Assembly (NCBI GenBank): GCA_018303425.1
Contig: JAGVYF010000003.1
Location: 5,150 to 69,149, forward strand
Source: Candidatus Woesearchaeota archaeon
GTDB taxonomy: Archaea; Nanobdellota; Nanobdellia; Woesearchaeales; JAGVYF01
DNA length: 64,000 nucleotides
Direction of reading: 5' to 3'
Positions 1,988 through 53,749 of the stretch are shown piece after piece. A model generated the notes under the pieces. It did not search any database. It was given only the letters and a program-made list of their open reading frames with translations, and was not told where the DNA came from. The translations under genes and the position numbers were made by a program. Position 1 is the first letter of the stretch. Each line of letters begins with the position of its first letter.

Positions 1988-2316
1988 AAATTAATCTATT
2001 AAAGTAGTATTAATATATAAAAGTTGCTACTTTAAACTAATTTGGTAGATAAATAATCTATCAAGGTAGTATTAAATATAAGAAACGAGCATTAATCAAT
2101 CAAGACCAGACGCCACCAATGGAGCACATTGGTAGAAAATGTGATATTATGAACCGCCCGCAAGAAGTGAAGCTCCTGCGCACAGAACTTTCAGTTCTTA
2201 TAGAACCAAAGCTAACTTTTGATAAACAAACTTTCTAATTACAAAAGAAATAAAATTTAATATAAAAATGCGAAAATAAAACAGGCCATTGACAAAACTA
2301 TTTCAATGACACATTT

Positions 2317-2721
2317 TTATCTAATGGTAAAAATATTTTTGAGCTTTTTTGGAATACCCTGCAATACCAACAAAGCTAATGGAGCCGCCCAATTTGCCGT
2401 ACGTTCTACAAAATCCCAAATTGGATCTCCGGCGATTGGACGTGACAATGCTGTAGCAAACGCCCACAATACTGCATAGATTAGCACAAGCCTAATCGGC
2501 CAAATAAGCGCCAAAATGGCTACAACTATATCCATTGTTCCAATTATAGGTAGCATTACCCTGGCTGATGATTCAGAAAAACCAAATGCCGTAATAAGTG
2601 GTATCCACCCTTGCTTTATACCTAGCGCAAAAATTCCGTGTCCCAAAAAAGAACCAAATACCCCTATTCGTAAAATCCATTCCGCTATTTTTTGTTGTGA
2701 ATTCATAATACTAAATGTCAA
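2317..2721 (-). CDS. Small integral membrane protein, 4 predicted TM (DoxX-like?)
   Basis: Hydrophobic helices run throughout the 134-aa ORF. The antisense ORF 2516..2725 is rejected. Confidence 0.4.
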   Translation of the reverse strand: MTFSIMNSQQKIAEWILRIGVFGSFLGHGIFALGIKQGWIPLITAFGFSESSARVMLPIIGTMDIVVAILALIWPIRLVLIYAVLWAFATALSRPIAGDPIWDFVERTANWAAPLALLVLQGIPKKLKNIFTIR

Positions 2722-2853
2722 TTAGTGATTCTTTATATATTTTACTGAATTAACATCCAAACCCATTTCACTGAATTTAAGTATCCATATTAATAGACCA
2801 AAGGAAAAACACAATCTATTCAAAAGAGATAAATAAGAAAAAGGTAACAAAAT

Positions 2854-3288
2854 CTAAACTGGAGCCTTTTCCACAGTTTCTACTTTAGGCAGAGGTATAG
2901 GAGAAGGCAGATTTAAATCTCTACTTAGAATAATTGACTGAATATTGCACTTTGCAAGAGCAGTATTTAATACTTGTAAAGTCATTTCTTTTTCAAGATT
3001 TTTATTCTTTTTCCAACCATCTAAAGCTTTTTTAACTTTAACAGCATCTTCCAAGATTAATACTTCCCCCACTAAATCTATATGGGCTAATACATCCTTT
3101 AAATCACTTGCATAATTAACACCATAATCAAAAGTAACTCTTAAACCTGATTGCTTTTCTGTACCTAACTGTAAATCCTTAGATTCAACTTCTTTGATAA
3201 CAATGTTGTTATTTATACTGACTTTACCTTGTAACGCTTTATTTTTTTCAACTACAATTTTATTAAAATTAAATCCTACAACTGTCAT
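2854..3288 (-). CDS. Hypothetical protein
   Basis: A 144-aa ORF with coding-like composition and no recognisable motif. Confidence 0.35.
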   Translation of the reverse strand: MTVVGFNFNKIVVEKNKALQGKVSINNNIVIKEVESKDLQLGTEKQSGLRVTFDYGVNYASDLKDVLAHIDLVGEVLILEDAVKVKKALDGWKKNKNLEKEMTLQVLNTALAKCNIQSIILSRDLNLPSPIPLPKVETVEKAPV

Positions 3289-3381
3289 ATTAAAACCTCC
3301 CTAAACTTTAATCTAAAAAAGCATAATCTAGTATTTAAAGATTTAGATTATATTATAATTGTTATCTAACAAAATATATAA

Positions 3382-3873
3382 ATGCTGAATGCATTAAATA
3401 TATTAATGCTTGAGATATATTTTATTTTAGGACTTTTATCATTTGCGGGCATAATCCTGGGTCTGATATTAGGAATGATTGCTCCAGAAGAATTAAAACC
3501 TGGAGCTCCATGGTTTATCAAATTAAAAAATACAATATTTACATTATTAATATTAATATTATTATATTACAACATTTATAATCTTATAATAATACCATTA
3601 ATTATTTTCTTAATATTATACTGGTACCGAGGAACTTTAGGCGAAGAATCATATATGCTTGAGTATAGTATGATGGGTTCGCTATTTGGAATGGGATATT
3701 ATACCCCCGCCATACCTGAAATAATTGGATTGATTTTTATATATAAAATTACATCAGGAAGTTTGTTAATATACAAAAATAATAATTTCAATTTTTTAAT
3801 AAAATCAATTTGCTTAAGATTAATATTCTATATTTTGGGATTATTATTACCACTTATGTTTGCGAATGTGTAA
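3382..3873 (+). CDS. Hypothetical polytopic membrane protein
   Basis: 163 aa, very hydrophobic and Ile/Leu-rich. It overlaps the 3' end of carS on the opposite strand by about 27 nt. Confidence 0.3.
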   Translation: MLNALNILMLEIYFILGLLSFAGIILGLILGMIAPEELKPGAPWFIKLKNTIFTLLILILLYYNIYNLIIIPLIIFLILYWYRGTLGEESYMLEYSMMGSLFGMGYYTPAIPEIIGLIFIYKITSGSLLIYKNNNFNFLIKSICLRLIFYILGLLLPLMFANV

Positions 3874-4371
3874 AACAAATCCAACATAGCTTAATAAAAG
3901 TTTAAGAAAATAAGTAAAAACTACCATTAAAACAATCTGCAAATATGTAAATTTAATTATAAGGCTTGAAAATAAAATGGCTCCTAATACCGCATCAATT
4001 TGATCTGCAATAAAAAAATTATGCCCGGGAATAATATTTATTCTCCTCTTAATGAACGATTTAAATAAATCCCCAAACATGGCCCCAGTTGCAAGAAAAA
4101 GACCTAATAACACGCTATAATCCTGATATATGATAATACTGTTGATATTAATAACCTTCTGAAAATAAAACATTATAGTGCCAAATAGAATTGCAACCAA
4201 TATCCCCCTAAATGTTTTATGTGCCCCAAATAAAGAATTGCCCTCCAATTTTATCCCTAAGTCCAAAGGAAATTCTAAAGATTTCAATTTATTCCTAAAT
4301 AATAATGGCATAATATCTGCTATATAAACAGGAAATAAAAAATAAATCAATTTCAGACTTTCAGCTAACAT
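3847..4371 (-). CDS. carS: CDP-archaeol synthase (CDP-2,3-di-O-geranylgeranyl-sn-glycerol synthase)
   Basis: 174 aa with 5 TM. The motif GNSLFGAHKTFRGILVAILFG matches the CarS/DUF46 G-x-x-KT-x-EG signature. Confidence 0.6.
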   Translation of the reverse strand: MLAESLKLIYFLFPVYIADIMPLLFRNKLKSLEFPLDLGIKLEGNSLFGAHKTFRGILVAILFGTIMFYFQKVININSIIIYQDYSVLLGLFLATGAMFGDLFKSFIKRRINIIPGHNFFIADQIDAVLGAILFSSLIIKFTYLQIVLMVVFTYFLKLLLSYVGFVLHIRKHKW

Positions 4372-4425
4372 AGATTATTAAAAATATATTGCTTTAATAA
4401 ATCTTATCCTATATCTAGCGAAACG

Positions 4426-4434
4426 TTTATAAAT
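4426..4434 (+). promoter_or_regulatory. TATA box (TTTATAAAT) about 26 nt upstream of the tRNA-Asn 5' end
   Basis: Archaeal TATA consensus at the expected distance from the tRNA start. Confidence 0.3.
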
Positions 4435-4458
4435 GAAGCTCGGATTTCATAATTCAAT

Positions 4459-4604
4459 GTCTCCGTAGCTTAGCGGTGGAGCGTGCGGCTGTTAAATTGG
4501 CGATAAGATTAACTAAAACGTCAATTAAAGAAACCGCAAGGTCCCCAGTTCGAATATTGGCGCCAGATATTTTAGACGCCTGTGAGAAAGTCTGGGCGGA
4601 GACG
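4459..4604 (+). tRNA. tRNA-Asn (GTT) with two introns: 38 nt at canonical 37/38 and ~36 nt in the T-loop (59/60 region)
   Basis: Acceptor GTCTCCG/CGGAGAC. D-stem GCT/AGC. Anticodon stem TGCGG/CCGCA with loop CTGTTA[intron]A. T-stem CCCAG/CTGGG with loop TTCGAAT followed by a 36-nt insert. Discriminator G. CCA is not encoded. Confidence 0.6.
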
Positions 4605-4670
4605 TCAAAAATCTAAGATTTTTGATCGTGCACAGGATTTAAAATCCTGACACGTTTTTTATTTTCACAT

Positions 4671-4801
4671 GAGCTTGTAGCTTAGCCTGGTGGAGCGCAC
4701 GACTGATAACATTTTGTCAGAGATCGTGAGGTCCGGAGTTCAAATATTAACGCCTGAGGCAAAATGCTTCGAACGTCAGTGAGAAAATCTCCGCAAGCTC
4801 A
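4671..4801 (+). tRNA. tRNA-Ile (GAT) with two introns: 14 nt at 37/38 and ~43 nt in the T-loop
   Basis: Acceptor GAGCTTG/CAAGCTC. Anticodon stem CACGA/TCGTG with loop CTGATA[intron]A. T-stem CGGAG/CTCCG with loop TTCAAAT followed by a 43-nt insert. An oligo-T run follows the gene. Confidence 0.6.
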
Positions 4802-4853
4802 TTTTTTAAAATGATACACAAACTTTATAACAAATTACCCAAAAACTATTCTT

Positions 4854-6395
4854 ATGTCTATAAATATTCCTGAATTATGCAAAGATGCCTATATCAATAT
4901 TGCTTTAGACACTATTAGGCTAGGTAAACAAGCGCTAATTTTTACTAATTCAAAACCTGGCGCAGAAAAAAGCGCAGAAGAAATATCTAAAAAAAATAAA
5001 AATAACGAATTATCTGAACTTTCTGAACAAATCCTAAAAACACTGCCTAAACCGACTAAACAATGTGAAAGATTAGCTAAATGCGTTAAACATGGCATTG
5101 CGTTCCACCATTCAGGTTTGCACCCCAAACAAAAAGAAATAATTGAAAATGCTTTTCGGGACGGCACTATCAAAATTATCGCGTGTACACCTACACTTGC
5201 TGCCGGACTTGATATGCCTGCGTTTAGAACAATATTAAGAGAAGTCAAACGCTACACTAATACTGGCTATAACTGGATTCAAACCCTGGAATATTACCAA
5301 ATGGCTGGAAGAGCCGGACGTCCGGGTAAAGAAGATTATGGTGAAAGTATATTGATTGCCAATGACAAAAAACATTCGGAAGAATTACTTAACAGGTTCA
5401 TTTATGGTTCACCTGAAGACATTTTTTCAAAATTAGCCGTTGAACCTGTATTAAGAACATACATCCTTTCATTAATATCAAGTGGCTTTGTAAATTCAAA
5501 AAAAGAAATTATTGATTTCTTTTCTAAAACATTCTGGGCTTTTCAGTTTAGAGATTTGGATAAATTAATTTTCATAATCGAAAAAATGTTGCGCCTATTA
5601 ATAGATTTTAAATTCATCGAAACTTCAAATACAAATAATTTTTCAAGCATTGATGAGATAAACACAAAATTATACATGGCAACAGCCCTAGGTAAAAGAG
5701 TTGCAGAACTTTACATTGACCCATTAACAGCTAACCATATCCTTAATTGTTTAAGCCGGAACGATAACCCCTCTCCGCTGGGGTTACTACAAATGACATC
5801 GCACACTCTGGAGATGATGCCTTTATTAAAAGTAAAAATGAAAGAATTTGACAGCTACCAAAATGAAATAATTAGATACACTGAAGAATTGCTTGAACCA
5901 GAGCCAACAATCTATGATTATGAATACGACGAATTCCTTAATTCATTAAAAACAGCGCTATTCTTTAATGACTGGATTGAAGAAAATTATGAAGATTATC
6001 TTTTAGAAAAATATAATATTACTCCCGGGGCAGTGCACACAAAATTAACTATACTTGACTGGCTGCTTTATACCTCCGCCGAAATAGCAAACATTGCAAA
6101 TTTAAAATCAAGTATTAAGCACATCAACAAAGTTAGATTTAGGATAAAACATGGAATTAAAGAAGAATTAATTCCTCTTTGCAGATTAAATAATATCAGC
6201 AAGATAAGGGCACGTAAACTTTACAACAACGGAATCAAAGATTTAGGCGATATTAAGAAAGCTAACTTCCAAACATTAATCCAAATTTTGGGAGAAAAAA
6301 TTGCATTAAATATTAAAAGCCAAGTTGGACAAAAAATCGAACCTGAAGTAAAACCAACAAAACGTATTGGGCAGATGGGTTTAACCAAATACTGA
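4854..6395 (+). CDS. Hel308/Ski2-like DNA helicase, C-terminal half only (RecA2, winged helix, ratchet and HhH domains); the N-terminal DEAD/RecA1 domain is absent
   Basis: Motifs IV-VI are present: [51 protein letters not shown]. There is an in-frame stop at 4812 and the tRNA genes lie immediately upstream, so no Walker A/B domain can be encoded here. Confidence 0.65.
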
Positions 6396-7487
6396 TTCAA
6401 GAAAACCTTTTTTATTTTTAACTGTTTTATCAAATTCTTTCAACAAATCTTTCTGTTGTTTATTAAGTTTTGTAGGTATATCTATTACAATTTTAACATT
6501 CTGTGAACCTTTCCCATAGCCTTCTAAATTAGAAATTCCATATTCTTTCATTCTAAAAACAGTATTGCATTGAGTGCCTGCAGGGATAGTTAAGGAAGCA
6601 ACACCTTTCAAGGTTGGCACATCAACATTTGCGCCCATCACAGCCTGCGCATAACTAATAGGCAATTCTAAATAAATATCATCTCCCTCCCTCTTAAAAA
6701 TATCATGCTTTTGAACATTAATATATACATAAAGATCTCCTTTATTTCCTCCATTTATACCTGCTTCACCTTCGTTTTTAACTCTCAATCTCGAACCGTC
6801 ATGTATACCACCTGGAATTTCAATTTCAATCTCTCTTGTATTTCTTACTCTCCCATTTCCGCCGCAATTTGAACACGCTTTGCGAATAGTTTTACCATGC
6901 CCATTACAGTCATGGCAAGTAGATGATTGCGCAAATATTCCAAAAGGAGTTCTAACCTCGCTTTTAATTACACCTGAACCTTGACACAAACGGCAATTAA
7001 TAATATCCGAATCAGATTTAGCGCCAGTACCATGACAACTTTTACATGTTTCCATTCGGGGAATATTAATAGTTTTTTTCTTGCCAAACGCGGCATCTTC
7101 TAAATTGATAGTTATTTCAAATTCAATATCACTTCCCCTAACCGAAGAACTCTTCCTGCGCCTTTTTCCTCCAAATAATCCATCAAACATATCACCCAAA
7201 TCAAAATCAAACCCGAAATTTCCGCCTGAAAACCCTGAAAAATCAAACCCGCCCTGTCCTGAACTAAAATTAGTGTCAGCTGTGCCAAATTGATCATACT
7301 GCTGCCTTTTTTTATCATCACCCAATACAGATGCAGCTTCATTAATCTCTTTAAACTTTTCATCCGAATCACTCTCTTTATTCAAGTCTGGATGATATTG
7401 TTTAGCTAACTTTTTATAAGCCTTTTTAATCTCTTCTTTTGAAGCGTCTTTCCCTAACCCTAAAACTTTATAATAATCTTTGCCCAT
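6381..7487 (-). CDS. dnaJ: Chaperone DnaJ (Hsp40)
   Basis: J domain [31 protein letters not shown] Gly/Phe-rich linker follows. Four CxxCxGxG zinc-finger repeats are present. Confidence 0.9.
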
Positions 7488-8247
7488 TTTTTACACCAAA
7501 TATTTCTAAAATTTCCGATTCACCAGAATAAAGAAGTTCAGTTTTTATATCTGATAAGCCTTGTTTCTCCATATTATAATCCATTTCTCGAGCATAAACA
7601 TCCGCAAACCCTGAACAATTTGCATGTGAAATTAATAGTTTTCCGCCCGGTCTTAATATTCTAATCATATTTTGAAATTTATTCCCCATGTTAAAATCAT
7701 TATATTCATAGTCCCGTTCAACACAAGCAGATTCATGTATCATGTTTGAAACTAGAACCATATCAAATGCCTTACTAAATGGCGCAGCTAATAAATCTCC
7801 TTGGACTATCCCAATATTTTTACATCCATATTTTTTAGCTCTTTTTTCCAATTCTGATAATGCTATTGCTTGAACATCTAAAGCAACAAAATAAGTTCCA
7901 GGATTATTTAATGCAAGATACACTGTTTTAAGTCCAGTTCCTGAACCAACATCTAATACTTTTTCACGCCCTTTAACGCTTTTATCCAGATAAGGAAGAA
8001 TAACTTTCACGTCGCTAGCGCGAAAACAATCAACATTGCCAAACAAATTGCATCCATAAATCAAATTATACATTTCTCTTTCTAAAGGCACTAAATCACC
8101 TGACCTTGAACAAATTAACTTTTCAATTTGTGTCAATCTTTGTTCTACTGCGTCACCCATGCCTTTTTTATTCAAATCAACTAACTCCTCTAATGAAATC
8201 TGTTTAATGCCTTCATTCCCAAAATAATCACTTAGCGATATCGTCAT
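7468..8247 (-). CDS. Class I SAM-dependent methyltransferase
   Basis: Motif [17 protein letters not shown]. The gene sits between dnaK and dnaJ. Confidence 0.55.
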
Positions 8248-13636: not shown

Positions 13637-14665
13637 CTAAAGAAATAAACGCCAATAATTGCTTACAAATTCATTGGCAATAAATTCAACAAGTTCTTTG
13701 TATTTTACAACATCAAAATCATCAATAGTAAGCTTATCTGCTTGATTAAGAGCAGAAAGATATTTTGCTCTTGTTTTTTGGCTTATTATAATTGGAGGAT
13801 AACCATGACTCAAAAATATATAATTCATCAAGATTCTGCCTGTTCTTCCATTTCCATCCATAAAAGGATGAATTTTTTCAAATTTATGATGAAATATTGC
13901 AGCAAGAACAAGTGGGTGTAATTTTGATTTATAATCACTATAACGCTTCAAAAGCATTTTCATATCAGCAAACACATAAGGTGAAGGAGTTGATTCAAAT
14001 TGAGACTTAAATACCCTCACGTCTGTAGTTCTATAACCTATCCTGCTATCAATATTTTTTAAAAGTGACTGATGAATTTCACAAATAAATTCATGATTAA
14101 TATCTTTAGGAAGATTTTCAAAAAGATTCAAAAATACAGTTTCAGTATTTTGCAAATCATATACTTCTCTTAGAGTCTTATCCTTTGGAGTTAAATGTTC
14201 TAAAAATAGTTTTTTTGCCTCACGCAAAGTAATTGTATTTCCTTCTATAGATGCAGTATTAAATGCAAATTCAATAACAAAATTTTTTATTATTTCAGCT
14301 TTAGTCTCTTTATCCAATTTTTCAAAAACACTATGCCAATGGAGCTTGCATGCCTCAATATTTTCCAGCAAATGTTTTGACAGATATGAGTTTGATTTAA
14401 ACTTCATTGACTTTACTTTTTCAATAAACCTGTTTGATTCGATAAATCGGTTTAAAGTTTTATATGCCTTTCTAATATCTGAAGAATATTTCGCAGGCAT
14501 TTTTGAAAGTTTTTCTTTAACTTCATCAATATTTAAACCCAAATAAACAATATCTTTAGTTACGAGACGTTTTCCTTGTTTTAAAGAAGCTCTCAAATAG
14601 TAATAGGATCTTCCCCCTTTAATTTTTACATAAATATATACCATTATATTCAAAAATTTAAACAA
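13637..14665 (-). CDS. Fic/DOC family protein (putative AMPylase)
   Basis: Canonical Fic motif HPFMDGNGRTGRILMNY. Confidence 0.8.
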   Translation of the reverse strand: MFKFLNIMVYIYVKIKGGRSYYYLRASLKQGKRLVTKDIVYLGLNIDEVKEKLSKMPAKYSSDIRKAYKTLNRFIESNRFIEKVKSMKFKSNSYLSKHLLENIEACKLHWHSVFEKLDKETKAEIIKNFVIEFAFNTASIEGNTITLREAKKLFLEHLTPKDKTLREVYDLQNTETVFLNLFENLPKDINHEFICEIHQSLLKNIDSRIGYRTTDVRVFKSQFESTPSPYVFADMKMLLKRYSDYKSKLHPLVLAAIFHHKFEKIHPFMDGNGRTGRILMNYIFLSHGYPPIIISQKTRAKYLSALNQADKLTIDDFDVVKYKELVEFIANEFVSNYWRLFL

Positions 14666-33807: not shown

Positions 33808-33893
33808 GCCTCTGTAGCATAGCAGCTATTGCGTCGGCCTTGTAATATACACAAGAAAGCCGAAGGTCGAGGGTGCAATTCCCTTCAGAGGCT
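33808..33893 (+). tRNA. tRNA-Thr (TGT) with a 13-nt canonical intron
   Basis: Acceptor GCCTCTG/CAGAGGC. Anticodon stem TCGGC/GCCGA with loop CTTGTA[ATATACACAAGAA]A. T-arm GAGGG-TGCAATT-CCCTT. Confidence 0.7.
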
Positions 33894-47233: not shown

Positions 47234-48236
47234 TGTGTTATCCCTCAAATATTTCGCACTTGTTTAAAGTATGATAAAGCTGTTGCTTTATCCATGAAAT
47301 TAATAATTAAAAAACAGGTGCGTATAGTGAAAAGAAAACAAAATAGATTGTCATCAGCTTTAATCGCTAAGCAGTTTAATATTTCAAAACGCAGAGTGGA
47401 GCAAGTTTGGAGCTATTTCTGTAAAAATACCGCATATCTCCCGATACAAAAGCCAGGAAGGAAGCCTTATAGGAAGGAAATCCCTAATCTAAAAGATAGG
47501 ATACTTAGAATCCATAAGAAGCATAATTTTGGTGCTACTTATATTGCGAAATTTTTACGAGATAAACTTAAAATACCAATCTCAAATAATTATATTCATC
47601 AAATATTGCTTGATGGGGGATTAGCAATGCCAAATAAATGCAAACAAAAACGTAGAAAACCTTGGGTTAGGTATGAAAGGAGACATAGCTTGTCTGCGGT
47701 ACATATGGATTGGCATTATAGCTCTAAATTGAATAAATGGATGTGTGCAGTATTAGATGATGCTTCAAGAAAAATTATATCTGGTGGGGAGTATGATAAC
47801 GCATATGCAAGTCATTGTATAGATATGCTTGAAAAAGCATATGAGAAAAATAAACAGATAATTGGCATTAGGGAAGTGATTACCGATCATGGATCTCAAT
47901 TTTTTGCAAATAAAAAGAAAAACGATGGAGACCAATCTGAAAGTAAATTCCAGGAATACTGCAAGAATAAAGGAATTAATCATATTTTCTGTAAGTATCA
48001 TCATCCACAGACAAATGGGAAATTTGAAAAATGGAATCATACCTATGAACTACATAGATATAGGTTTAATTTTTTTGAAGAATTTGTCGATTGGTATAAC
48101 AATCGACCTCACGGAAGCCTTAATTTTATGACTCCGGAACAAGCGTTCTGGTTCAAAGCACAAGATATTATTTTAGGGTGGTTTTTTAAATGGGCAGAAC
48201 TAAATTAAAGATGCGAAATAATTACGAGATAACACA
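47234..48236 (+). mobile_element. Insertion sequence (IS481-like), ~1.0 kb, imperfect ~25-bp terminal IRs (TGTGTTATCC...TTTCGCA), 9-bp TSD ACGCTAAAA
   Basis: Left end TGTGTTATCCCTCAAATATTTCGCA. Right end (reverse complement) TGTGTTATCTCGTAATTATTTCGCA. Direct repeats ACGCTAAAA at 47224..47232 and 48237..48245. Confidence 0.7.
47294..48208 (+). CDS. Transposase, rve (DDE integrase-core) family with N-terminal HTH
   Basis: VHMDWHY, ITDHGSQF and HPQTNGKFEKWN form the DDE triad context. Confidence 0.75.
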   Translation: MKLIIKKQVRIVKRKQNRLSSALIAKQFNISKRRVEQVWSYFCKNTAYLPIQKPGRKPYRKEIPNLKDRILRIHKKHNFGATYIAKFLRDKLKIPISNNYIHQILLDGGLAMPNKCKQKRRKPWVRYERRHSLSAVHMDWHYSSKLNKWMCAVLDDASRKIISGGEYDNAYASHCIDMLEKAYEKNKQIIGIREVITDHGSQFFANKKKNDGDQSESKFQEYCKNKGINHIFCKYHHPQTNGKFEKWNHTYELHRYRFNFFEEFVDWYNNRPHGSLNFMTPEQAFWFKAQDIILGWFFKWAELN

Positions 48237-48287: not shown

Positions 48288-48653
48288 TGAAGTAGAAAGT
48301 TACTTAACCAACGGTAAACTATGAAAATTCAAGTGTTAAATCACTGAATTTTAAAGTTCACTGAGGAAAGTCCGTCCACCCCATATTTTATATGGAAGTA
48401 ATTGCTCATGAAAATGAGGCGGAGCAATCTGCGGCTCTGGGTAAGAAACACACGGCCATTAAGAATAGGAATGATGTGCGCGAAGCATTGGGTGACCGAT
48501 GTTAGTTAACCCACAGACGACCTTAATGGAAACGATGAAATCCGAACCCCTTTTGGTGCAAGTCATGTTGACGCTTAGTTGAATGTTAAGACAGTCTGTT
48601 CGACACTTTGTAACGAAGACTGACAAAAGACGGCTTATTACTCTCTACTTCAA
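48288..48653 (+). ncRNA. rnpB: RNase P RNA (archaeal)
   Basis: CR-I GAGGAAAGTCCG and CR-V ACAAAAGACGGCTTA are present. P4 forms as AAG-U-CCG with CGGCTT. P1 pairs TGAAGTAGAAAGT with ACTCTCTACTTCA (13 bp, 1 mismatch). Oligo-T terminator follows. Confidence 0.7.
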
Positions 48654-50826: not shown

Positions 50827-50990
50827 GGGCAGCGAGAGGGAGTCGAACCCTCCTCACAGGATTTCTGCAATTTGCCTTTAACCATCAGAAATGAGCTAAA
50901 ATAAAGTTTTTGCTCGCTGATTTTGGTCAAGCTTTTTGCTTGGCAAAAAGGTTGCCACAGTCCCATATTCTACCGATGAACTACCGCCGC
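50827..50990 (-). tRNA. tRNA-His (GTG) with encoded G-1 and a ~93-nt canonical intron
   Basis: Minus strand reads G-GCGGCGG-TA-GTTC-ATCGGTA-GAAT-A-TGGGA-CTGTGG[93 nt]A-TCCTG-TGAG-GAGGG-TTCGACT-CCCTC-TCGCTGC-C. Discriminator C73 pairs with G-1. A TATA box lies at about +51015..51025. Confidence 0.6.
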
Positions 50991-51400: not shown

Positions 51401-52021
51401 ATGAGAAGGAGAGAACTTCTGCAAAAACTAGCTGGAATTCAAACTATGGGTTCGGTTATGGATATACTTAAAGTAGATAAAAGAATGGCAATTTATTACA
51501 TACACCGCCTTAGAAAAGAAGGTTATGTTAAAACCAAGAGACAGAGCAATAATCGAAGAGTTTACAATATCTCACTTGAGAATAAATTAGGTGGCAAGAG
51601 CTATTACGAGATTATTAATCAACATTCCCCCATTAAAATCTCAACGCCAGTAATCTATAGAATATACGGTAAAGAACCAAGCCTAGAAGAAACCTTAATT
51701 TATGCAATAAAAACTAAAAGTATCAGGACTATTCTTGCGTCATTGGCTTTATTTGGAAAAATTATTAATTGGGTAGAATTATATAATATAGCTAAAAAGA
51801 ATAATATTGAAAGACAAGTTGGGGCATTATATGATCTTGCTCGCCAGATTATGAAGGTGAGAAAAATGTCTCCTAAATTTAGAAGTAGTACTCTCCCAAA
51901 AGAAAAATATAAGTTTGAATATGTTGTTCCAAAATTAAAATCTAGAGATTTTACTGGAATAGAAAAAATATGGAAAATTTATCTTCCGTTTAACAAGAAA
52001 GATTTGGAGGAGTACAAATGA
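51401..52021 (+). CDS. AbiEi-like antitoxin / transcriptional regulator (N-terminal wHTH)
   Basis: The N-terminal 60 aa are wHTH. 206 aa. The stop overlaps the next start (ATGA). Confidence 0.45.
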   Translation: MRRRELLQKLAGIQTMGSVMDILKVDKRMAIYYIHRLRKEGYVKTKRQSNNRRVYNISLENKLGGKSYYEIINQHSPIKISTPVIYRIYGKEPSLEETLIYAIKTKSIRTILASLALFGKIINWVELYNIAKKNNIERQVGALYDLARQIMKVRKMSPKFRSSTLPKEKYKFEYVVPKLKSRDFTGIEKIWKIYLPFNKKDLEEYK

Positions 52022-52686
52022 TTACTATAGACCAACAGCAAAAATTATTATTAAATGTTGCTAGAAGACTTAGCAAGAAAATAACTATTTACGCCATTGG
52101 CGGAACTGCCATGATGTTCCTTGGTTTTAAAGATGCAACTTTAGATATTGATCTAGTCTTTAAGAATGAAAAAGACCGCGCTGTATTCAAAGAAGCTGTA
52201 AAATCTTTAGGTTATTTAGAAATGGACGCTATTAAGATTTACGGAGTAAAACGAAATACACCTGAGATGTTTAAGCTTAACGATGAACGCTTTGATTTAT
52301 TTGTAGTAGAAGTAGTTGATTTTATCTTTTCAGAAAATATGAAACAAAGAACCGAACAAACGCATCAGTTCGGAGAAACACTCATTCTAAAAATAGCCAA
52401 TCCCCATGATATTATCCTTATGAAATGTGCTACTGATCGTTTAAAAGACAAAGACGATGCAAGAAGAATTATTAATTCCACAAAAATAAATTGGGATACC
52501 ATTATAGGAGAAGCTAAAAACCAAATGGAATTGGGAAAAGAAAGAGCAGTATTTGATTTAACTTGTTTTTTAGAAGATCTTAGAAAAATGATGGGAGTAA
52601 ATATTCCTTCAGAAATTATGGACAAACTCTTTGATTTAATTGAAAGACAGGTAAAAGAAAAAAAGAAAAAGGCTAGAGAAAATTAA
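52018..52686 (+). CDS. AbiEii-like nucleotidyltransferase toxin (DUF1814-type)
   Basis: IYAIGGTAMMFLGFKDATLDIDLV is the GGTAL...DID motif of AbiEii/AbiGii NTases. Confidence 0.5.
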   Translation: MITIDQQQKLLLNVARRLSKKITIYAIGGTAMMFLGFKDATLDIDLVFKNEKDRAVFKEAVKSLGYLEMDAIKIYGVKRNTPEMFKLNDERFDLFVVEVVDFIFSENMKQRTEQTHQFGETLILKIANPHDIILMKCATDRLKDKDDARRIINSTKINWDTIIGEAKNQMELGKERAVFDLTCFLEDLRKMMGVNIPSEIMDKLFDLIERQVKEKKKKAREN

Positions 52687-52930
52687 CTTCCGATTCCCCC
52701 CGCGAAACGACTAACTGAAAATTACCCCTTGATACTTATTCTTGATGCACTGAGAAATTAAAGATTTCTGGTGTCCCAAAAAGCTTTGCTTTTTGAGGAG
52801 CTCACTGTGTTCGCTTGATTGAATACACTCCTGAAATTACTTTAATTTTTTGCTATTCGAGCATCATTGCACTAAAATCTCGTCCTCATTTCATTCAGAG
52901 AAACTAACAGCGATCGCGATGTTATACGCA

Positions 52931-52967
52931 ATTTCTTTCCACTAAATCAAAAATAAGGCACCTGGCC
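52931..52967. repeat. Left inverted repeat of the toxin-antitoxin cassette (TTTCTTTCCACTAA...AAGGCACCTGGCC)
   Basis: Reverse complement of 53565..53595: 14 + 12 bp matching around a short gap. Confidence 0.55.
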
Positions 52968-53015
52968 AAAAGGTTTATTAATAAGTTCTACTTATATGGA
53001 ATTAGGTTAACTAAT

Positions 53016-53255
53016 ATGGTACAAGCACTTGTAGAAATTAATGATAATACGAATCGTGTGTTAAATGTTGTTAAGGCAAAATTCGGACTTAAGGATAAAG
53101 GTAAGGCTATCGAATTTGTTGTTTCTGAATTTATTGAGTTTGAGAACGAGCCTGAATTAGCACCTGGTTTTATTCAAAAGATTGAAGAAATTAAGAAACA
53201 AAAAAGCATTAAAGTAACTGATTTTGCAAAACGATATGGACTTAAAAGTTCATAA
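53016..53255 (+). CDS. Putative antitoxin of the RelE/ParE-type pair
   Basis: 79 aa. Lies 14 nt upstream of the toxin gene. Confidence 0.45.
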   Translation: MVQALVEINDNTNRVLNVVKAKFGLKDKGKAIEFVVSEFIEFENEPELAPGFIQKIEEIKKQKSIKVTDFAKRYGLKSS

Positions 53256-53269
53256 AAAAGAGTTGATAA

Positions 53270-53548
53270 TTGATATATGATCTAAAGATTAAACCTGAAA
53301 TTGATAAGATATTCTCAAAACTAGCAAAGAAGAATCCTCAGCAATTGATGATTATTGACAAGAAAATAAATGAAATTCGAGAAGATCCTTCGGGTTATAA
53401 GTTCTTAAGAAAGCCTCTTAATGGTTTTAATAGAGTCCATATCGATAAGCACTTCGTCCTTATATTTCAAGTAAACCATCATAAAAAAGTGGTAGAAATT
53501 TACTATTTCGACCATCACGATTCTGTATACGCTTGGAGACCGAAGTAA
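53270..53548 (+). CDS. RelE/ParE-family toxin
   Basis: LRKPLNGFNRVHIDKHFVLIFQVNHHKKVVEIYYFDHHDSVY matches the RelE/ParE C-terminal signature. Confidence 0.6.
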   Translation: MIYDLKIKPEIDKIFSKLAKKNPQQLMIIDKKINEIREDPSGYKFLRKPLNGFNRVHIDKHFVLIFQVNHHKKVVEIYYFDHHDSVYAWRPK

Positions 53549-53564
53549 TTTTAGGGCCAGGTGC

Positions 53565-53595
53565 CTTTAAGTTAGTGGAAAGAAACTTCTTCGCT
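53565..53595. repeat. Right inverted repeat of the toxin-antitoxin cassette (GGCCAGGTGCCTT...TTAGTGGAAAGAAA)
   Basis: See the left IR. Confidence 0.55.
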
Positions 53596-53749
53596 TCGCT
53601 CAGACCGCGCTGCGCTTTCGGCTTCGCCTCAGGGAGCATAACAGAGCTTAACCGACTACGAAATCTTGCAGGTTTCCCCACCCAAATTTATTTTTAAAAA
53701 TTAACATACAGACAATAAAATTTTTGGACAGCGCCCATTTAACAATAAC

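Follow-up and report, generated by a model that had tools for sequence, protein, structure and literature searches.

A toxin-antitoxin gene pair in the window, the 64-kb stretch of Woesearchaeote DNA analyzed here, lies within a discrete insertion whose ends fall at dif-like sites, and the same junction is empty in a related genome. On balance, and with moderate confidence, we interpret the pair as cargo within a small cassette, the mobility of which, past or present, would depend on site-specific recombination at such sites. The family to which this cassette belongs would represent a variant of Xer/integron-type cassettes, and the mechanism outlined below is proposed on that basis.

Results

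A conserved toxin-antitoxin pair is bounded by a composite inverted repeat

The pair comprises an antitoxin-like gene (53016..53255, + strand; 79 aa) and a RelE/ParE-superfamily toxin-like gene (53270..53548, + strand; 92 aa, with a TTG start), with coordinates exactly as called in a first-pass annotation of this DNA. Its reading of the two genes as a toxin-antitoxin pair is also supported by sequence comparison. The antitoxin matches Pfam DUF2683 (E = 4.6e-4, below the curated cut-off), and the toxin weakly matches ParE_toxin (21.3 bits against a cut-off of 23) and a HigB-like family (19.2). Homologues of the toxin fall into 207 clusters, some of which bear the name RelE or YafQ in their source records; among the close homologues, several have a precomputed PF05016 match, and 19 columns are invariant across 36 toxin homologues. 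In all 80 of 80 related loci, the toxin is directly preceded by an antitoxin homologue, and the antitoxin/RelE-like pair is present in 80 or more DPANN archaeal species. The segment preceding the antitoxin (52968..53015, + strand) contains AAAAGG-TTTATTAATAAG, which resembles BRE/TATA elements, with a TAAGT..ACTTA palindrome between these and the ATG, and is probably the promoter and operator; a AAAAGTTTATAAATAAGttnnACTTA...ACTTAGGTGA block upstream of the antitoxin is kept in nearly all of the 80 related loci. Judged from its sequence, the gene pair is a conserved, probably self-promoted toxin-antitoxin module.

The module is bracketed by an inverted repeat with a left arm at 52932-52967 and a right arm at 53555-53585, separated by 587 nt. 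The repeat is composite: the outer left block (52932..52945; TTTCTTTCCACTAA), whose first base is shared with a dif-like arm, pairs with the outer right block (53572..53585; TTAGTGGAAAGAAA) over 14 bp, and the inner left block (52955..52967; AAGGCACCTGGCC), directly 5' of the toxin-antitoxin promoter, pairs with the inner right block (53555..53567; GGCCAGGTGCCTT), which begins 7 nt past the toxin stop codon, over 13 bp. Both pairings are 100% complementary, and the spacers between blocks are unequal (9 nt in the left arm, 4 nt in the right). The existence of this repeat had been recognized correctly, but its right arm had been placed at 53565..53595, 10 nt off. The repeat has a local-alignment score of 38-40, compared to a maximum of 26 in 20 shuffles, and a second shuffle set reached its score in 0 of 100 cases. 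The two arms also pair in the minimum-free-energy fold of either strand.

No further copy of either block was found in the 64-kb window, even allowing 2 mismatches. The first-pass annotation had proposed searching for the same ends elsewhere, including with other cargo, and for a target-site duplication outside the repeats, and neither search was positive. The viral contigs contained no second copy, no homologue of the pair and no copy of the leader that follows the cassette (described below). In a metagenome scan, the sequence that combines the cassette 5' end with the outer block, GTTATAYSCAMWTTCTTTCCAC, returned three chance matches in coding DNA; the scan is uninformative given that the source species itself was not retrieved. 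No direct repeat lies directly outside the arms, where the flanks read ...GCAA on the left and CTTC... on the right; the sole direct repeat, TAACAG, is situated 22-59 nt beyond the arms and is part of the dif-like junctions.

At other loci, direct repeats that are locus-specific and present only twice often flank homologues of the pair, suggesting an additional or different route of insertion. The window-type repeat was absent around all of the closest homologues on short contigs (L099-L102). A first flanking-repeat scan of the 80 homologous loci wrongly suggested that the repeat was unique, because shorter repeats at homologous positions (in loci L090 and L046) fell under its null, and position-aware tests took its place. 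In L090 and L046, repeats occur at positions equivalent to the inner left block of the window, while the repeat there in locus L062 is weak; in all three loci these repeats adjoin the site element CCACCTGAATT and the leader end TTCAGG. The equivalent of the outer left block in locus L022 reads TTCTTTCCACCAA.

The pair lies within an insertion at a dif-like junction

In L090, which derives from another Woesearchaeote, homologues of window positions 52865-52910 and 53659-53695 lie about 15 nt apart, joined at CTG|TTAGTTTC. Relative to L090, the window carries an insertion of about 734 bp (52908-53641) exactly at the conserved CTG|TTA junction, and we take this 734-nt unit (52908..53641, - strand), missing from L090, as the whole inserted cassette. 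The cassette joins the flanking DNA at CTG|TTA, beyond the repeats and inside dif-like sites. On the - strand, it consists of a right arm, a GC-rich leader, the repeat-bounded toxin-antitoxin cargo in antisense, a left arm, and a spacer.

The dif-like right arm (53631..53641, - strand; TTATGCTCCCT) forms the cassette 5' end, directly after CTG|, and is the same as the L062 arm TTATGTTCCCT at 10 of 11 positions; the corresponding arm at L046 site d is TTATGCTCCCC. It is followed by a G+C-rich leader (53586..53630, - strand; GAGGCGAAGCCGAAAGCGCAGCGCGGTCTGAGCGAAGCGAAGAAG) that is homologous to the leaders after the crossover site in L062, L090, and L046 and includes the mini-palindromes GGCGAAGCC, GCGCAGCGC, and GCGAAGC. 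The 3' end of the cassette is marked by a complete dif-like site (52897..52932, - strand; ATTGCGTATAA - CATCGCGATCGCTG - TTAGTTTCTCT) of 36 nt, in which the spacer is 14 nt instead of 6 and contains an 8-nt palindromic insert. Its left arm, ATTGCGTATAA, shares 9 of 11 positions with the dif arm of Pyrococcus abyssi and is identical to that of L046 site e (ATTGCGTATAA-TCGCTG), and locus L048 holds the same junction (GAAACTAAC-AAATG|TTATACGCAG). Strong likeness to dif is confined to the left arm, the right arm sharing little beyond TTA(T), and the orientation of the sites is partly ambiguous because the arms are palindromic.

Upstream of the cassette on the - strand is the 3' part of a hairpin-type site (53642..53695, - strand; AAAAATAAATTTGGGTGGGGAAACCTGCAAGATTTCG...GCTCTG) that is homologous to L090 site S1 (97% identity over 37 nt by blastn) but lacks the 5' half, and the DNA fold of this segment contained no full hairpin. 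Downstream is the leader of the next cassette, the X-leader (52862..52907, - strand; TTAGTTTCTCTGAATGAAATGAGGACGAGATTTTAGTGCAATG), which is conserved in L090 (93% over 46 nt), in L048, and partly in L046. The window thus holds one complete site and one half-site. Complementarity between the cassette ends is 6/8 only, and the attC-type boxes R'' (RYYYAAC) and R' (GTTRRRY) are loosely matched by GTATAAC...G|TTAGTTT and G|TTATGC.

These leaders account for the G+C-rich flanks of unclear function that had been remarked on outside the repeats. The enrichment is clear on the right (48-53% G+C against a background of about 30%) and only mild on the left (35-38%); the right flank corresponds to the leader at 53586..53630, and the X-leader is part of the left flank. 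By homology, the two flanks are the conserved leaders of this toxin-antitoxin cassette and of the neighboring one. We also considered whether the cassette interrupts an RNA gene (RNase P RNA, a tRNA carrying a giant intron, or a bulge-helix-bulge intron) and rejected this: Rfam scans of the flanks in the window and of their uninterrupted homologue in L090, evaluated by gathering and E-value thresholds, produced only sub-threshold chance matches, ARAGORN found nothing on the flanks, and the bulge-helix-bulge motif is absent, the internal loop of the stem being 9/4 rather than 3-nt bulges 4 bp apart. Strain contig L005 has flank SNPs that seem compensatory, at positions that are unpaired in the predicted folds.

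The cassette frame recurs with and without cargo, and with cargo in either orientation

The segment at 1567-1676 of L046 is a cargo-less version of the cassette frame, comprising TTATGCTCCCC, a GC-rich leader, and ATTGCGTATAA-TCGCTG, while in L022 the same repeat-bounded module occurs in an unrelated chromosomal context. Together with the empty site in L090, these loci substantiate the idea, put forward in the first-pass annotation, that the pair belongs to a discrete, insertable unit. The order GC-leader, toxin-antitoxin pair, site, X-leader is complete in L046 and partial in L048, L062, and L090. The - strand of the window keeps the L046 order, but with the pair antisense; the repeat-bounded module is therefore flipped relative to the conserved frame, and that of L022 is likewise flipped compared to L046, L062, and L090. 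One L046 cassette holds a reversed ParE/DUF7557 pair. At the level of strains, all 15 of 15 contigs of the same species, from different samples, are collinear with the window at 98.8-100% identity, and none of them showed an excised circle, an empty allele, or the opposite orientation.

Arrays of dif-like sites in related loci carry cassette-specific repeats

In L062 and L046, arrays of sites with an ATTGnnnnTAA arm, a 6-nt spacer, and TTA... divide what are mostly toxin-antitoxin cassettes, and such cassettes occur in the differing arrays of L046, L062, and L090. The strict pattern ATTGNNNNTAA-N6-TTA is found 8 times in L062 and 5 times in L046, all on one strand, compared to about 1.2 per 64 kb in the shuffled 64-kb window used as the null. 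The L046 and L062 sites are 28 nt long, and the related loci contain 5-9 sites each. The L090 array is related but has hairpins in its spacers: its sites S1, S3, and S4 fold into hairpins of 80-140 nt, of which two show a 2-nt bulge, and canonical boxes (GCCTAAC and GTTAGGC) are present in L090.

The ends of individual cassettes covary. In L062, TTAAGTTC pairs with GAACTTAA and TTATGT with ACATAA; in L090, the pairings are TTAAAGAA/TTCTTTAA, TTAGGCGT/ACGCCTAA, and TTTCTTG/CAAGAAA, and the cassette 5' end is complementary to its own 3' site at 8/8 positions in three of the four cassettes. The repeats that flank the cargo are also specific to the cassette, with a mean score of 21.7 within the same cassette (n=11) and 13.1 for non-own combinations (n=62) across L046 and L062 (Mann-Whitney p = 4.3e-6), and the distance between the end of the right repeat arm and the dif-like left arm is 0-20 nt in 10 of 11 cassettes. 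Two L090 cassettes have surrounding repeats, of 13 and 18 nt, and none were found in the L091 array. When circle junctions were modeled as DNA folds, the repeat formed a basal stem under the site.

Searches for a recombinase

A Pfam search of ORFs of about 160-510 aa, including all of those of 250-450 aa, together with a check of precomputed Pfam matches, detected no tyrosine recombinase (Phage_integrase) in the 64-kb window. Nor was a recombinase found beside the related arrays, the neighbors of which encode glutamate dehydrogenase, 5'-nucleotidase, and, by sequence inspection alone, an apparent P-type ATPase. No intI or attI was found, and xerA is absent from the DNA examined. Two other readings were set aside: the locus does not appear to be the chromosomal dif/terminus, the cumulative GC skew turning at about 30-38 kb and not at 53 kb, and the repeat arms themselves, on inspection, are without the 11-6-11 symmetry of dif-like sites.

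Discussion

Alternative explanations for the repeats

The repeats might instead be the ~30-bp terminal inverted repeats of a non-autonomous, MITE-like element (52932-53585) recognized in trans by a transposase, essentially the mode of mobilization first suggested for this locus. Like MITEs, the unit is short, ends in inverted repeats, and lacks a transposase; it is exactly the difference between the window cassette and the cargo-less L046 frame, it is common to the window and L022 in different contexts, with homology stopping near the right arm, and an rve/DDE transposase gene, polymorphic between strains, lies 5 kb from the cassette. However, on the left side the homology between the window and L022 runs beyond the repeat into the dif-like arm, the spacers in the two arms are unequal, no target-site duplication accompanies the repeats, and the insertion junctions lie outside the arms. 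Moreover, the window, metagenome, and viral scans disclosed no further copy and no multi-copy family, and homologous toxin-antitoxin cassettes differ in their repeats (TTTAGACCAAACC in L090, TTCAGGCCGGGCG in L046), as do neighboring cassettes, implying that there is no common transposase-binding end. MITE-like mobilization is for these reasons unlikely. That the repeat arose by chance, or is a purely regulatory palindrome, such as an antitoxin operator, unlinked to mobility, we consider scarcely tenable. It is true that the window contains this repeat at a single locus, with no adjoining target-site duplication, the very observations which, according to the first-pass annotation, would favor a regulatory palindrome, yet its score is far over that of shuffled sequence, its arms are 587 nt apart and extend beyond the conserved promoter/operator block, related cassettes have equivalent cargo-flanking repeats, and the site in L090 is empty.

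A role at the level of RNA, in which transcribed arms would pair and loop out the toxin-antitoxin genes as a processing stem, an insulator, or a terminator-like structure, could explain why the position of the repeat is kept while its sequence is cassette-specific, the pattern expected of selection on pairing, and is consistent with the pairing of the arms in the predicted folds of both strands. Nevertheless, a conserved BRE/TATA-like promoter is located inside the left arm, implying that the pair's own transcript would be without that arm; there is no bulge-helix-bulge geometry and no Rfam family match in the window or L090, and the DNA junctions account for the arm positions without invoking RNA, making this explanation improbable. 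Finally, the repeats could be the recombination sites of a phase-variable, invertible toxin-antitoxin switch, given that the module is found in opposite orientations within the same frame in different species and that the endpoints of the flipped segment are the repeat arms. Against such a switch, which we judge to be quite improbable, are the lack of the opposite orientation in any of the 15 collinear contigs of the same species (0/15), the lack of an invertase or recombinase gene nearby, and the fact that flipping would not obviously switch expression, since the module has its own promoter.

A model for the cassette

The preferred reading, recombination at dif-like sites, can be formulated as follows. 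Each site would consist of an ATTGnnnnTAA arm, a spacer ending in TG, and a TTAnnnn arm, with crossover at or near G|TT, and each cassette would be ordered as right arm, G+C-rich leader, specific repeat arm, cargo, complementary repeat arm, and left arm. Catalysis would presumably fall to a host tyrosine recombinase (Xer/IntI type) encoded elsewhere in the genome. In an excised circle, the junction would read ...ATTGCGTATAA-CATCGCGATCGCTG|TTATGCTCCCT..., and the two repeat arms would lengthen the palindrome of the rejoined site, where they might contribute to folding, synapsis, or inversion; excision would leave an empty junction of the form ...GGTTAAGCTCTG|TTAGTTTCTCTGAATG.... In the integrated state, the repeat arms would necessarily lie on both sides of the cargo, which is the pattern originally noticed, and because the arms are inverted repeats, the orientation of the cargo would be free within the frame. 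The window cassette itself is probably immobilized, given its 14-nt spacer, the half-site upstream, the lack of a recombinase in the window, and the collinearity of the strains in one orientation.

Comparison with known systems

A close bacterial parallel is provided by the dif modules of Acinetobacter, which are flanked by pdif sites, depend on Xer, and in some cases carry toxin-antitoxin genes (PMC6449649). Both are small discrete units (the bacterial example being a 768-bp 'add dif' module) with 28-bp-type 11-6-11 sites and inner ATAA/TTAT arms, and both occur in varied contexts and orientations with no recombinase aboard the module. The L046 and L062 sites conform to the arrangement of 11-nt arms and a 6-nt spacer, whereas the window departs from it, with a 9/11 arm, a 14-nt spacer, and a half-site boundary. 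The Acinetobacter system is found on bacterial plasmids and its sites alternate inversely, while that described here is archaeal and chromosomal and the sites in its arrays are direct, on one strand. In addition, the repeat here is cassette-specific and lies inside the site rather than being the site itself, a G+C-rich leader follows each site, and the L090 and window sites have a palindromic insert in the spacer.

Integrons, and clusters of attC sites without an integrase, have been reported in archaea with toxin-antitoxin cassettes, including in Woesearchaeales (PMC9668308). Shared with these, and with the toxin-antitoxin cassettes of chromosomal integrons, are arrays in which cassettes of about 0.5-0.8 kb have a single orientation, a putative G|TT crossover, a cassette 5' end complementary to its own 3' site, and self-promoted toxin-antitoxin cargo that is sometimes reversed; the hairpins of L090 S1, S3, and S4 also resemble attC. 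However, attC sites are hairpins of 55-141 nt with extrahelical bases, whereas most sites here are 28-bp dif-like duplexes and that of the window is 36 nt, the intI and attI of integrons have no counterpart here, and the complementarity runs past the R boxes into cargo-flanking repeats of 8-36 nt. Integrase-less clusters are defined by at least two attC sites within 4 kb, which the single complete site and half-site of the window do not provide.

In archaea, XerA/dif is known as the site for resolution of chromosome dimers (PMC2958812), and dif is reported as a chromosome-resolution site present in one copy (PMC8371274). The left-arm consensus of 25 sites from the arrays is ATTGAATATAA, compared to ATTGGATATAA for the P. 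abyssi dif arm, and the 6-nt spacer is shared by the L046 and L062 sites, with TCGGTG in L062 and TCGGCC in P. abyssi. In contrast to a single copy per chromosome, up to 9 copies occur here in 8 kb between accessory genes, the right arm is poorly dif-like, and the window spacer is 14 nt long.

Implications

More broadly, and only tentatively, Woesearchaeota (DPANN) may hold chromosomal arrays of cassettes, mostly toxin-antitoxin, that are shuffled by an Xer/IntI-type recombinase at sites ranging from a 28-bp dif-like duplex to spacer-hairpin, attC-like forms, each cassette having a G+C-rich mini-hairpin leader and its own inverted repeat. If so, these arrays would be an archaeal counterpart of dif modules and could also represent a structural intermediate between dif and integron attC, and the presence of plain dif-like and hairpin variants of the same arms in one family of sites would make a dif-attC link testable. 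The cargo-flanking repeats and cargo-less frames would hint at how cassettes are loaded, and the occurrence of frames with and without cargo, the cargo being bracketed by cassette-specific inverted repeats, would bear on how integron-type cassettes acquire genes. For annotation, such cassettes would account for the puzzling G+C-rich intergenic segments of these genomes and for the repeats that surround their toxin-antitoxin genes. Should the arrays prove to be genuine recombination platforms, Xer-dependent or integron-like exchange of cassettes would reach into the streamlined genomes of DPANN archaea.

An inverted repeat surrounds the toxin-antitoxin pair

The antitoxin-like gene (53016-53255) and the RelE/ParE-like toxin gene (53270-53548), both on the plus strand, lie where the first-pass annotation had placed them, between the arms of an inverted repeat that proved to be real and composite. 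Its outer block, TTTCTTTCCACTAA (52932-52945), is perfectly complementary to 53572-53585 and its inner block, AAGGCACCTGGCC (52955-52967), to 53555-53567, with unequal gaps between the blocks, 9 nt in one arm and 4 nt in the opposite one; the right arm had originally been placed 10 nt too high. The arm alignment scored 38-40, whereas the best of 20 shuffles scored 26, and this score was reached by 0 of 100 sequences in a second shuffle set. No further copy of either block was found in the 64 kb with two mismatches tolerated, and a check for a target-site duplication outside the arms found no direct repeat adjoining them.

The 92-aa toxin-like protein matches ParE_toxin and HigB-like families at scores just under the Pfam cut-offs, and the 79-aa protein has a weak match to DUF2683 in Pfam. 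Toxin homologues fall into 207 clusters at 60-82% identity, nearly all of them from DPANN archaea and some bearing the source names RelE or YafQ; an antitoxin homologue is located directly upstream of the toxin homologue in 80/80 species-representative genomes. A block common to nearly all copies of the pair, AAAAGTTTATAAATAAGttnnACTTA...ACTTAGGTGA, precedes the ATG and, judged from its sequence, may comprise a BRE/TATA promoter and a palindromic operator. With this block positioned inward of the left repeat arm, a transcript of the pair's own is expected to lack that arm. A match to the C/D-box snoRNA-like family ceN65 at 53258-53322, spanning the intergenic gap and the toxin start, is probably due to chance (24.5 bits, against a gathering threshold of 48; E = 0.007).

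The inserted unit ends outside the repeat arms

When the flanks were compared with related loci by blastn, window positions 52865-52910 and 53659-53695 were found only ~15 nt apart in L090, a contig from a Woesearchaeote of the same kind of aquifer as the window's host. On the window's minus strand, the L090 junction reads ...AAATTCCTG|TTAGTTTCTCCGAATGAAATGAGG..., compared to ...AAGCTCTG|TTATGCTCCC...[734 nt]...GCGATCGCTG|TTAGTTTCTCTGAATGAAATGAGG... in the window, which delimits the inserted unit as 52908-53641. CTG|TTA occurs at both ends of this unit and the inverted repeats are internal to it. The proposal of a discrete unit stands, with repeat-bounded cargo found in either orientation, but that of a MITE-like element bounded by terminal repeats does not, given that the insertion ends at CTG|TTA outside the arms.

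The complete site of the window, on the minus strand from 52932 to 52897, is ATTGCGTATAA-CATCGCGATCGCTG-TTAGTTTCTCT. Site e in the related contig L046 (ATTGCGTATAA-TCGCTG) has an identical arm, and the 14-nt spacer of the window's site is the same as the outer part of S4, a site in L090 (CATCGCGA...TCGCTG). At the upstream boundary there is just a half-site, in which the 3' portion of an S1-type hairpin precedes TTATGCTCCCT.

Related contigs carry arrays of dif-like sites

L046 and a further related contig, L062, share the site ATTGnnnnTAA, a 6-nt spacer and TTAnnnnnnnn, the strict pattern of which occurs eight times in L062 and five times in L046, compared to ~1.2 times per 64 kb in shuffles of the window. 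L062 sites also match the E. coli dif core, GCATAA-N6-TTATGTT. The consensus left arm, ATTGAATATAA (25 sites), has a single difference from its counterpart in P. abyssi dif, ATTGGATATAA-TCGGCC-TTATATCTAAA (PMC2958812), and likeness to dif in the right arm is confined to TTA(T).

In L062, nine sites (ATTGnnnnTAA-TCKGTG-TTAnnn; array at 2290-7620) lie within 7.8 kb on a single strand, spaced 520-830 bp apart, and covariation is seen between cassette ends (TTAAGTTC/GAACTTAA and TTATGT/ACATAA). Pairs of DUF2683 or DUF7557 with ParE/RelE occupy at least four of the cassettes; a reversed 5'-nucleotidase and a response-regulator receiver domain are among the other cargo. The L046 array (seven sites, 190-2440) includes 'empty' cassettes, non-coding stretches of 100-150 nt made up of leader sequence alone; within ~2.3 kb it holds two copies each of a reversed ParE/DUF7557 pair and of a cassette with the X-leader, the leader that in the window belongs to the next cassette. 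L090 has five repeated sites within 4 kb, three of which are predicted to fold as 80-140-nt hairpins closed by AACA/TGTT, two of these three with a 2-nt bulge, and cassette 5' ends in L090 show complementarity to the 3' site of the same cassette (TTAAAGAA/TTCTTTAA, TTAGGCGT/ACGCCTAA and TTTCTTG/CAAGAAA). Another site, ACAATAATGTTTAAA, is repeated nine times on one strand of contig L091 (2247-5430), 330-690 nt apart; one cassette of this array is a homologue of the toxin-antitoxin pair, and no cargo-flanking repeats were found in the array. In the window, an isolated motif resembling the start of L090-type sites, TTAACTAACATCGGTCACCC, was observed in non-coding sequence after the transposase gene (48480-48510, minus strand).

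Cargo-flanking repeats are a cassette feature and the cargo fits either way round

All cassettes of L046, L062, L090 and the window are built on a common frame, which runs right arm, G+C-rich leader, repeat arm, cargo, repeat arm and left arm. Repeat scores averaged 21.7 for arms of the same cassette (n = 11) and 13.1 for non-own combinations (n = 62; Mann-Whitney p = 4e-6), and in 10/11 cassettes the gap between the end of the right repeat arm and the dif-like arm is 0-20 nt. In L090, repeats of 13 and 18 nt surround the toxin-antitoxin cassette and a neighboring cassette, and the window repeat is the longest example. The repeat sequences vary between cassettes, and thus it is the pairing that is kept rather than the sequence. 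In position, the window's inner block is equivalent to the site element CCACCTGAATT of L062/L046 and to the leader end TTCAGG, and by eye it resembles them. Modelled as an excised circle, the cassette would have the repeat as a basal stem under the rejoined site and the leader as an asymmetric bulge.

The window's frame recurs in L046 as TTATGCTCCC(C/T), then a leader homologous to the window's, then ATTGCGTATAA, with 24 nt in place of the 654-nt repeat-bounded module. The homologue nearest to the window's pair, at 82% nucleotide identity, is in L022. The module shared there starts at the dif-like arm, includes the left repeat arm and ends at a decayed right arm; it lacks a leader and is located between endonuclease III-like and hypA-like genes, as these appear from their translations. 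The pair runs from leader to site in L046, L062 and L090, and towards the site and X-leader in contig L048, whereas its direction is opposite in the window and L022. These opposite directions, together with the reversed ParE/DUF7557 pair inside an L046 cassette, imply that repeat-bounded cargo fits the frame either way round.

Leaders and genomic neighborhood

The G+C-rich flanks had been noted as stretches of unclear function. The right flank is the cassette leader, aligning with those of L062, L090 and L046, and the left flank begins with the leader of the cassette that comes next, conserved in L090, L048 and L046. This 46-nt X-leader, TTAGTTTCTCYGAATGAAATGAGGAYGAGATTTTARTGCAATG (window 52862-52907, minus strand; L090 3192-3240; L048 4354-4400), is ~93% conserved across species with proteins just ~60-70% identical. 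Read on the minus strand, the window leader contains the mini-palindromes GCGAAGC (53593-53599), GCGCAGCGC (53607-53615) and GGCGAAGCC (53620-53628), and similar ones recur in the L046, L062 and L090 leaders; GCGAAGC-type sequences form unusually stable DNA mini-hairpins. An interrupted structured RNA in the flanks was considered and rejected, as Rfam, ARAGORN and folding returned nothing, and the uninterrupted L090 homologue had no Rfam match. In the same-species contig L005, all seven SNPs fall in non-coding cassette leaders or sites (52844-52921 and 53629-53677) and 0/7 in the toxin-antitoxin genes, repeat arms or neighboring coding sequence; their positions do not pair in predicted folds.

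The host is an AT-rich archaeon (~30% G+C) with an archaeal SRP RNA and intron-containing tRNAs. Two of the latter, at 50828-50990 (minus strand) and 33808-33893 (plus strand), with introns of ~90 and 15 nt, were detected by Rfam and missed by ARAGORN. Adjoining the cassette, two overlapping ORFs (51401-52686) encoding winged-helix-like (206 aa) and DUF6036 nucleotidyltransferase-like (222 aa) proteins look like a second toxin-antitoxin-like pair, with candidate degenerate sites near 52700 and 51370. An rve/DDE transposase gene 5 kb from the cassette (47294-48208) is an insertion polymorphism, present in most same-species contigs and missing from L014, and is presumably part of an IS element. 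A toxin-type Fic/DOC-family gene (13637-14665, minus strand) lies amid otherwise housekeeping genes.

Mobility and relation to known systems

The first-pass interpretation is partly supported: the locus is a mobile-type cassette, but it is neither MITE-like nor bounded by terminal inverted repeats, and any mechanism for cassette movement is one that we infer from comparative anatomy. Searches of the window and of the sequences examined beside the arrays detected no tyrosine recombinase. Given the long spacer of the window's site and its half-site boundary, this copy is probably fixed, and the cassette is probably immobile at present; all 15 same-species contigs carry it in one orientation at 98.8-100% identity. 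Many lone copies of the pair elsewhere lie between direct repeats of 13-53 nt that are specific to the locus and have just two copies (L025/L028, L027, L034, L036, L048, L050, L061, L065, L084, L099 and other loci), which suggests a further insertion route. In L025 and L028 the direct repeat is a tRNA 3' end, in L048 and L099 it appears to be a gene 3' end, and in L035, L036, L061 and L084 it starts at most 2 nt from the stop codon and ends at most ~15 nt from the promoter block.

Archaeal integrons and integrase-less attC clusters are known, including from Woesearchaeales, and their annotated cargo most often consists of toxin-antitoxin pairs (PMC9668308). A bacterial precedent for small Xer-site-bounded modules is provided by the dif modules of Acinetobacter, which include toxin-antitoxin pairs (PMC6449649). 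Reviews give archaeal dif as single-copy, the term IMEX (integrative elements exploiting Xer) is absent from one of them (PMC8371274), and full-text literature searches found no description of dif-like cassette arrays in Woesearchaeota. Given these precedents and search results, the logic of the locus is ordinary, and it is the site architecture and the cargo-flanking repeats that are unusual.
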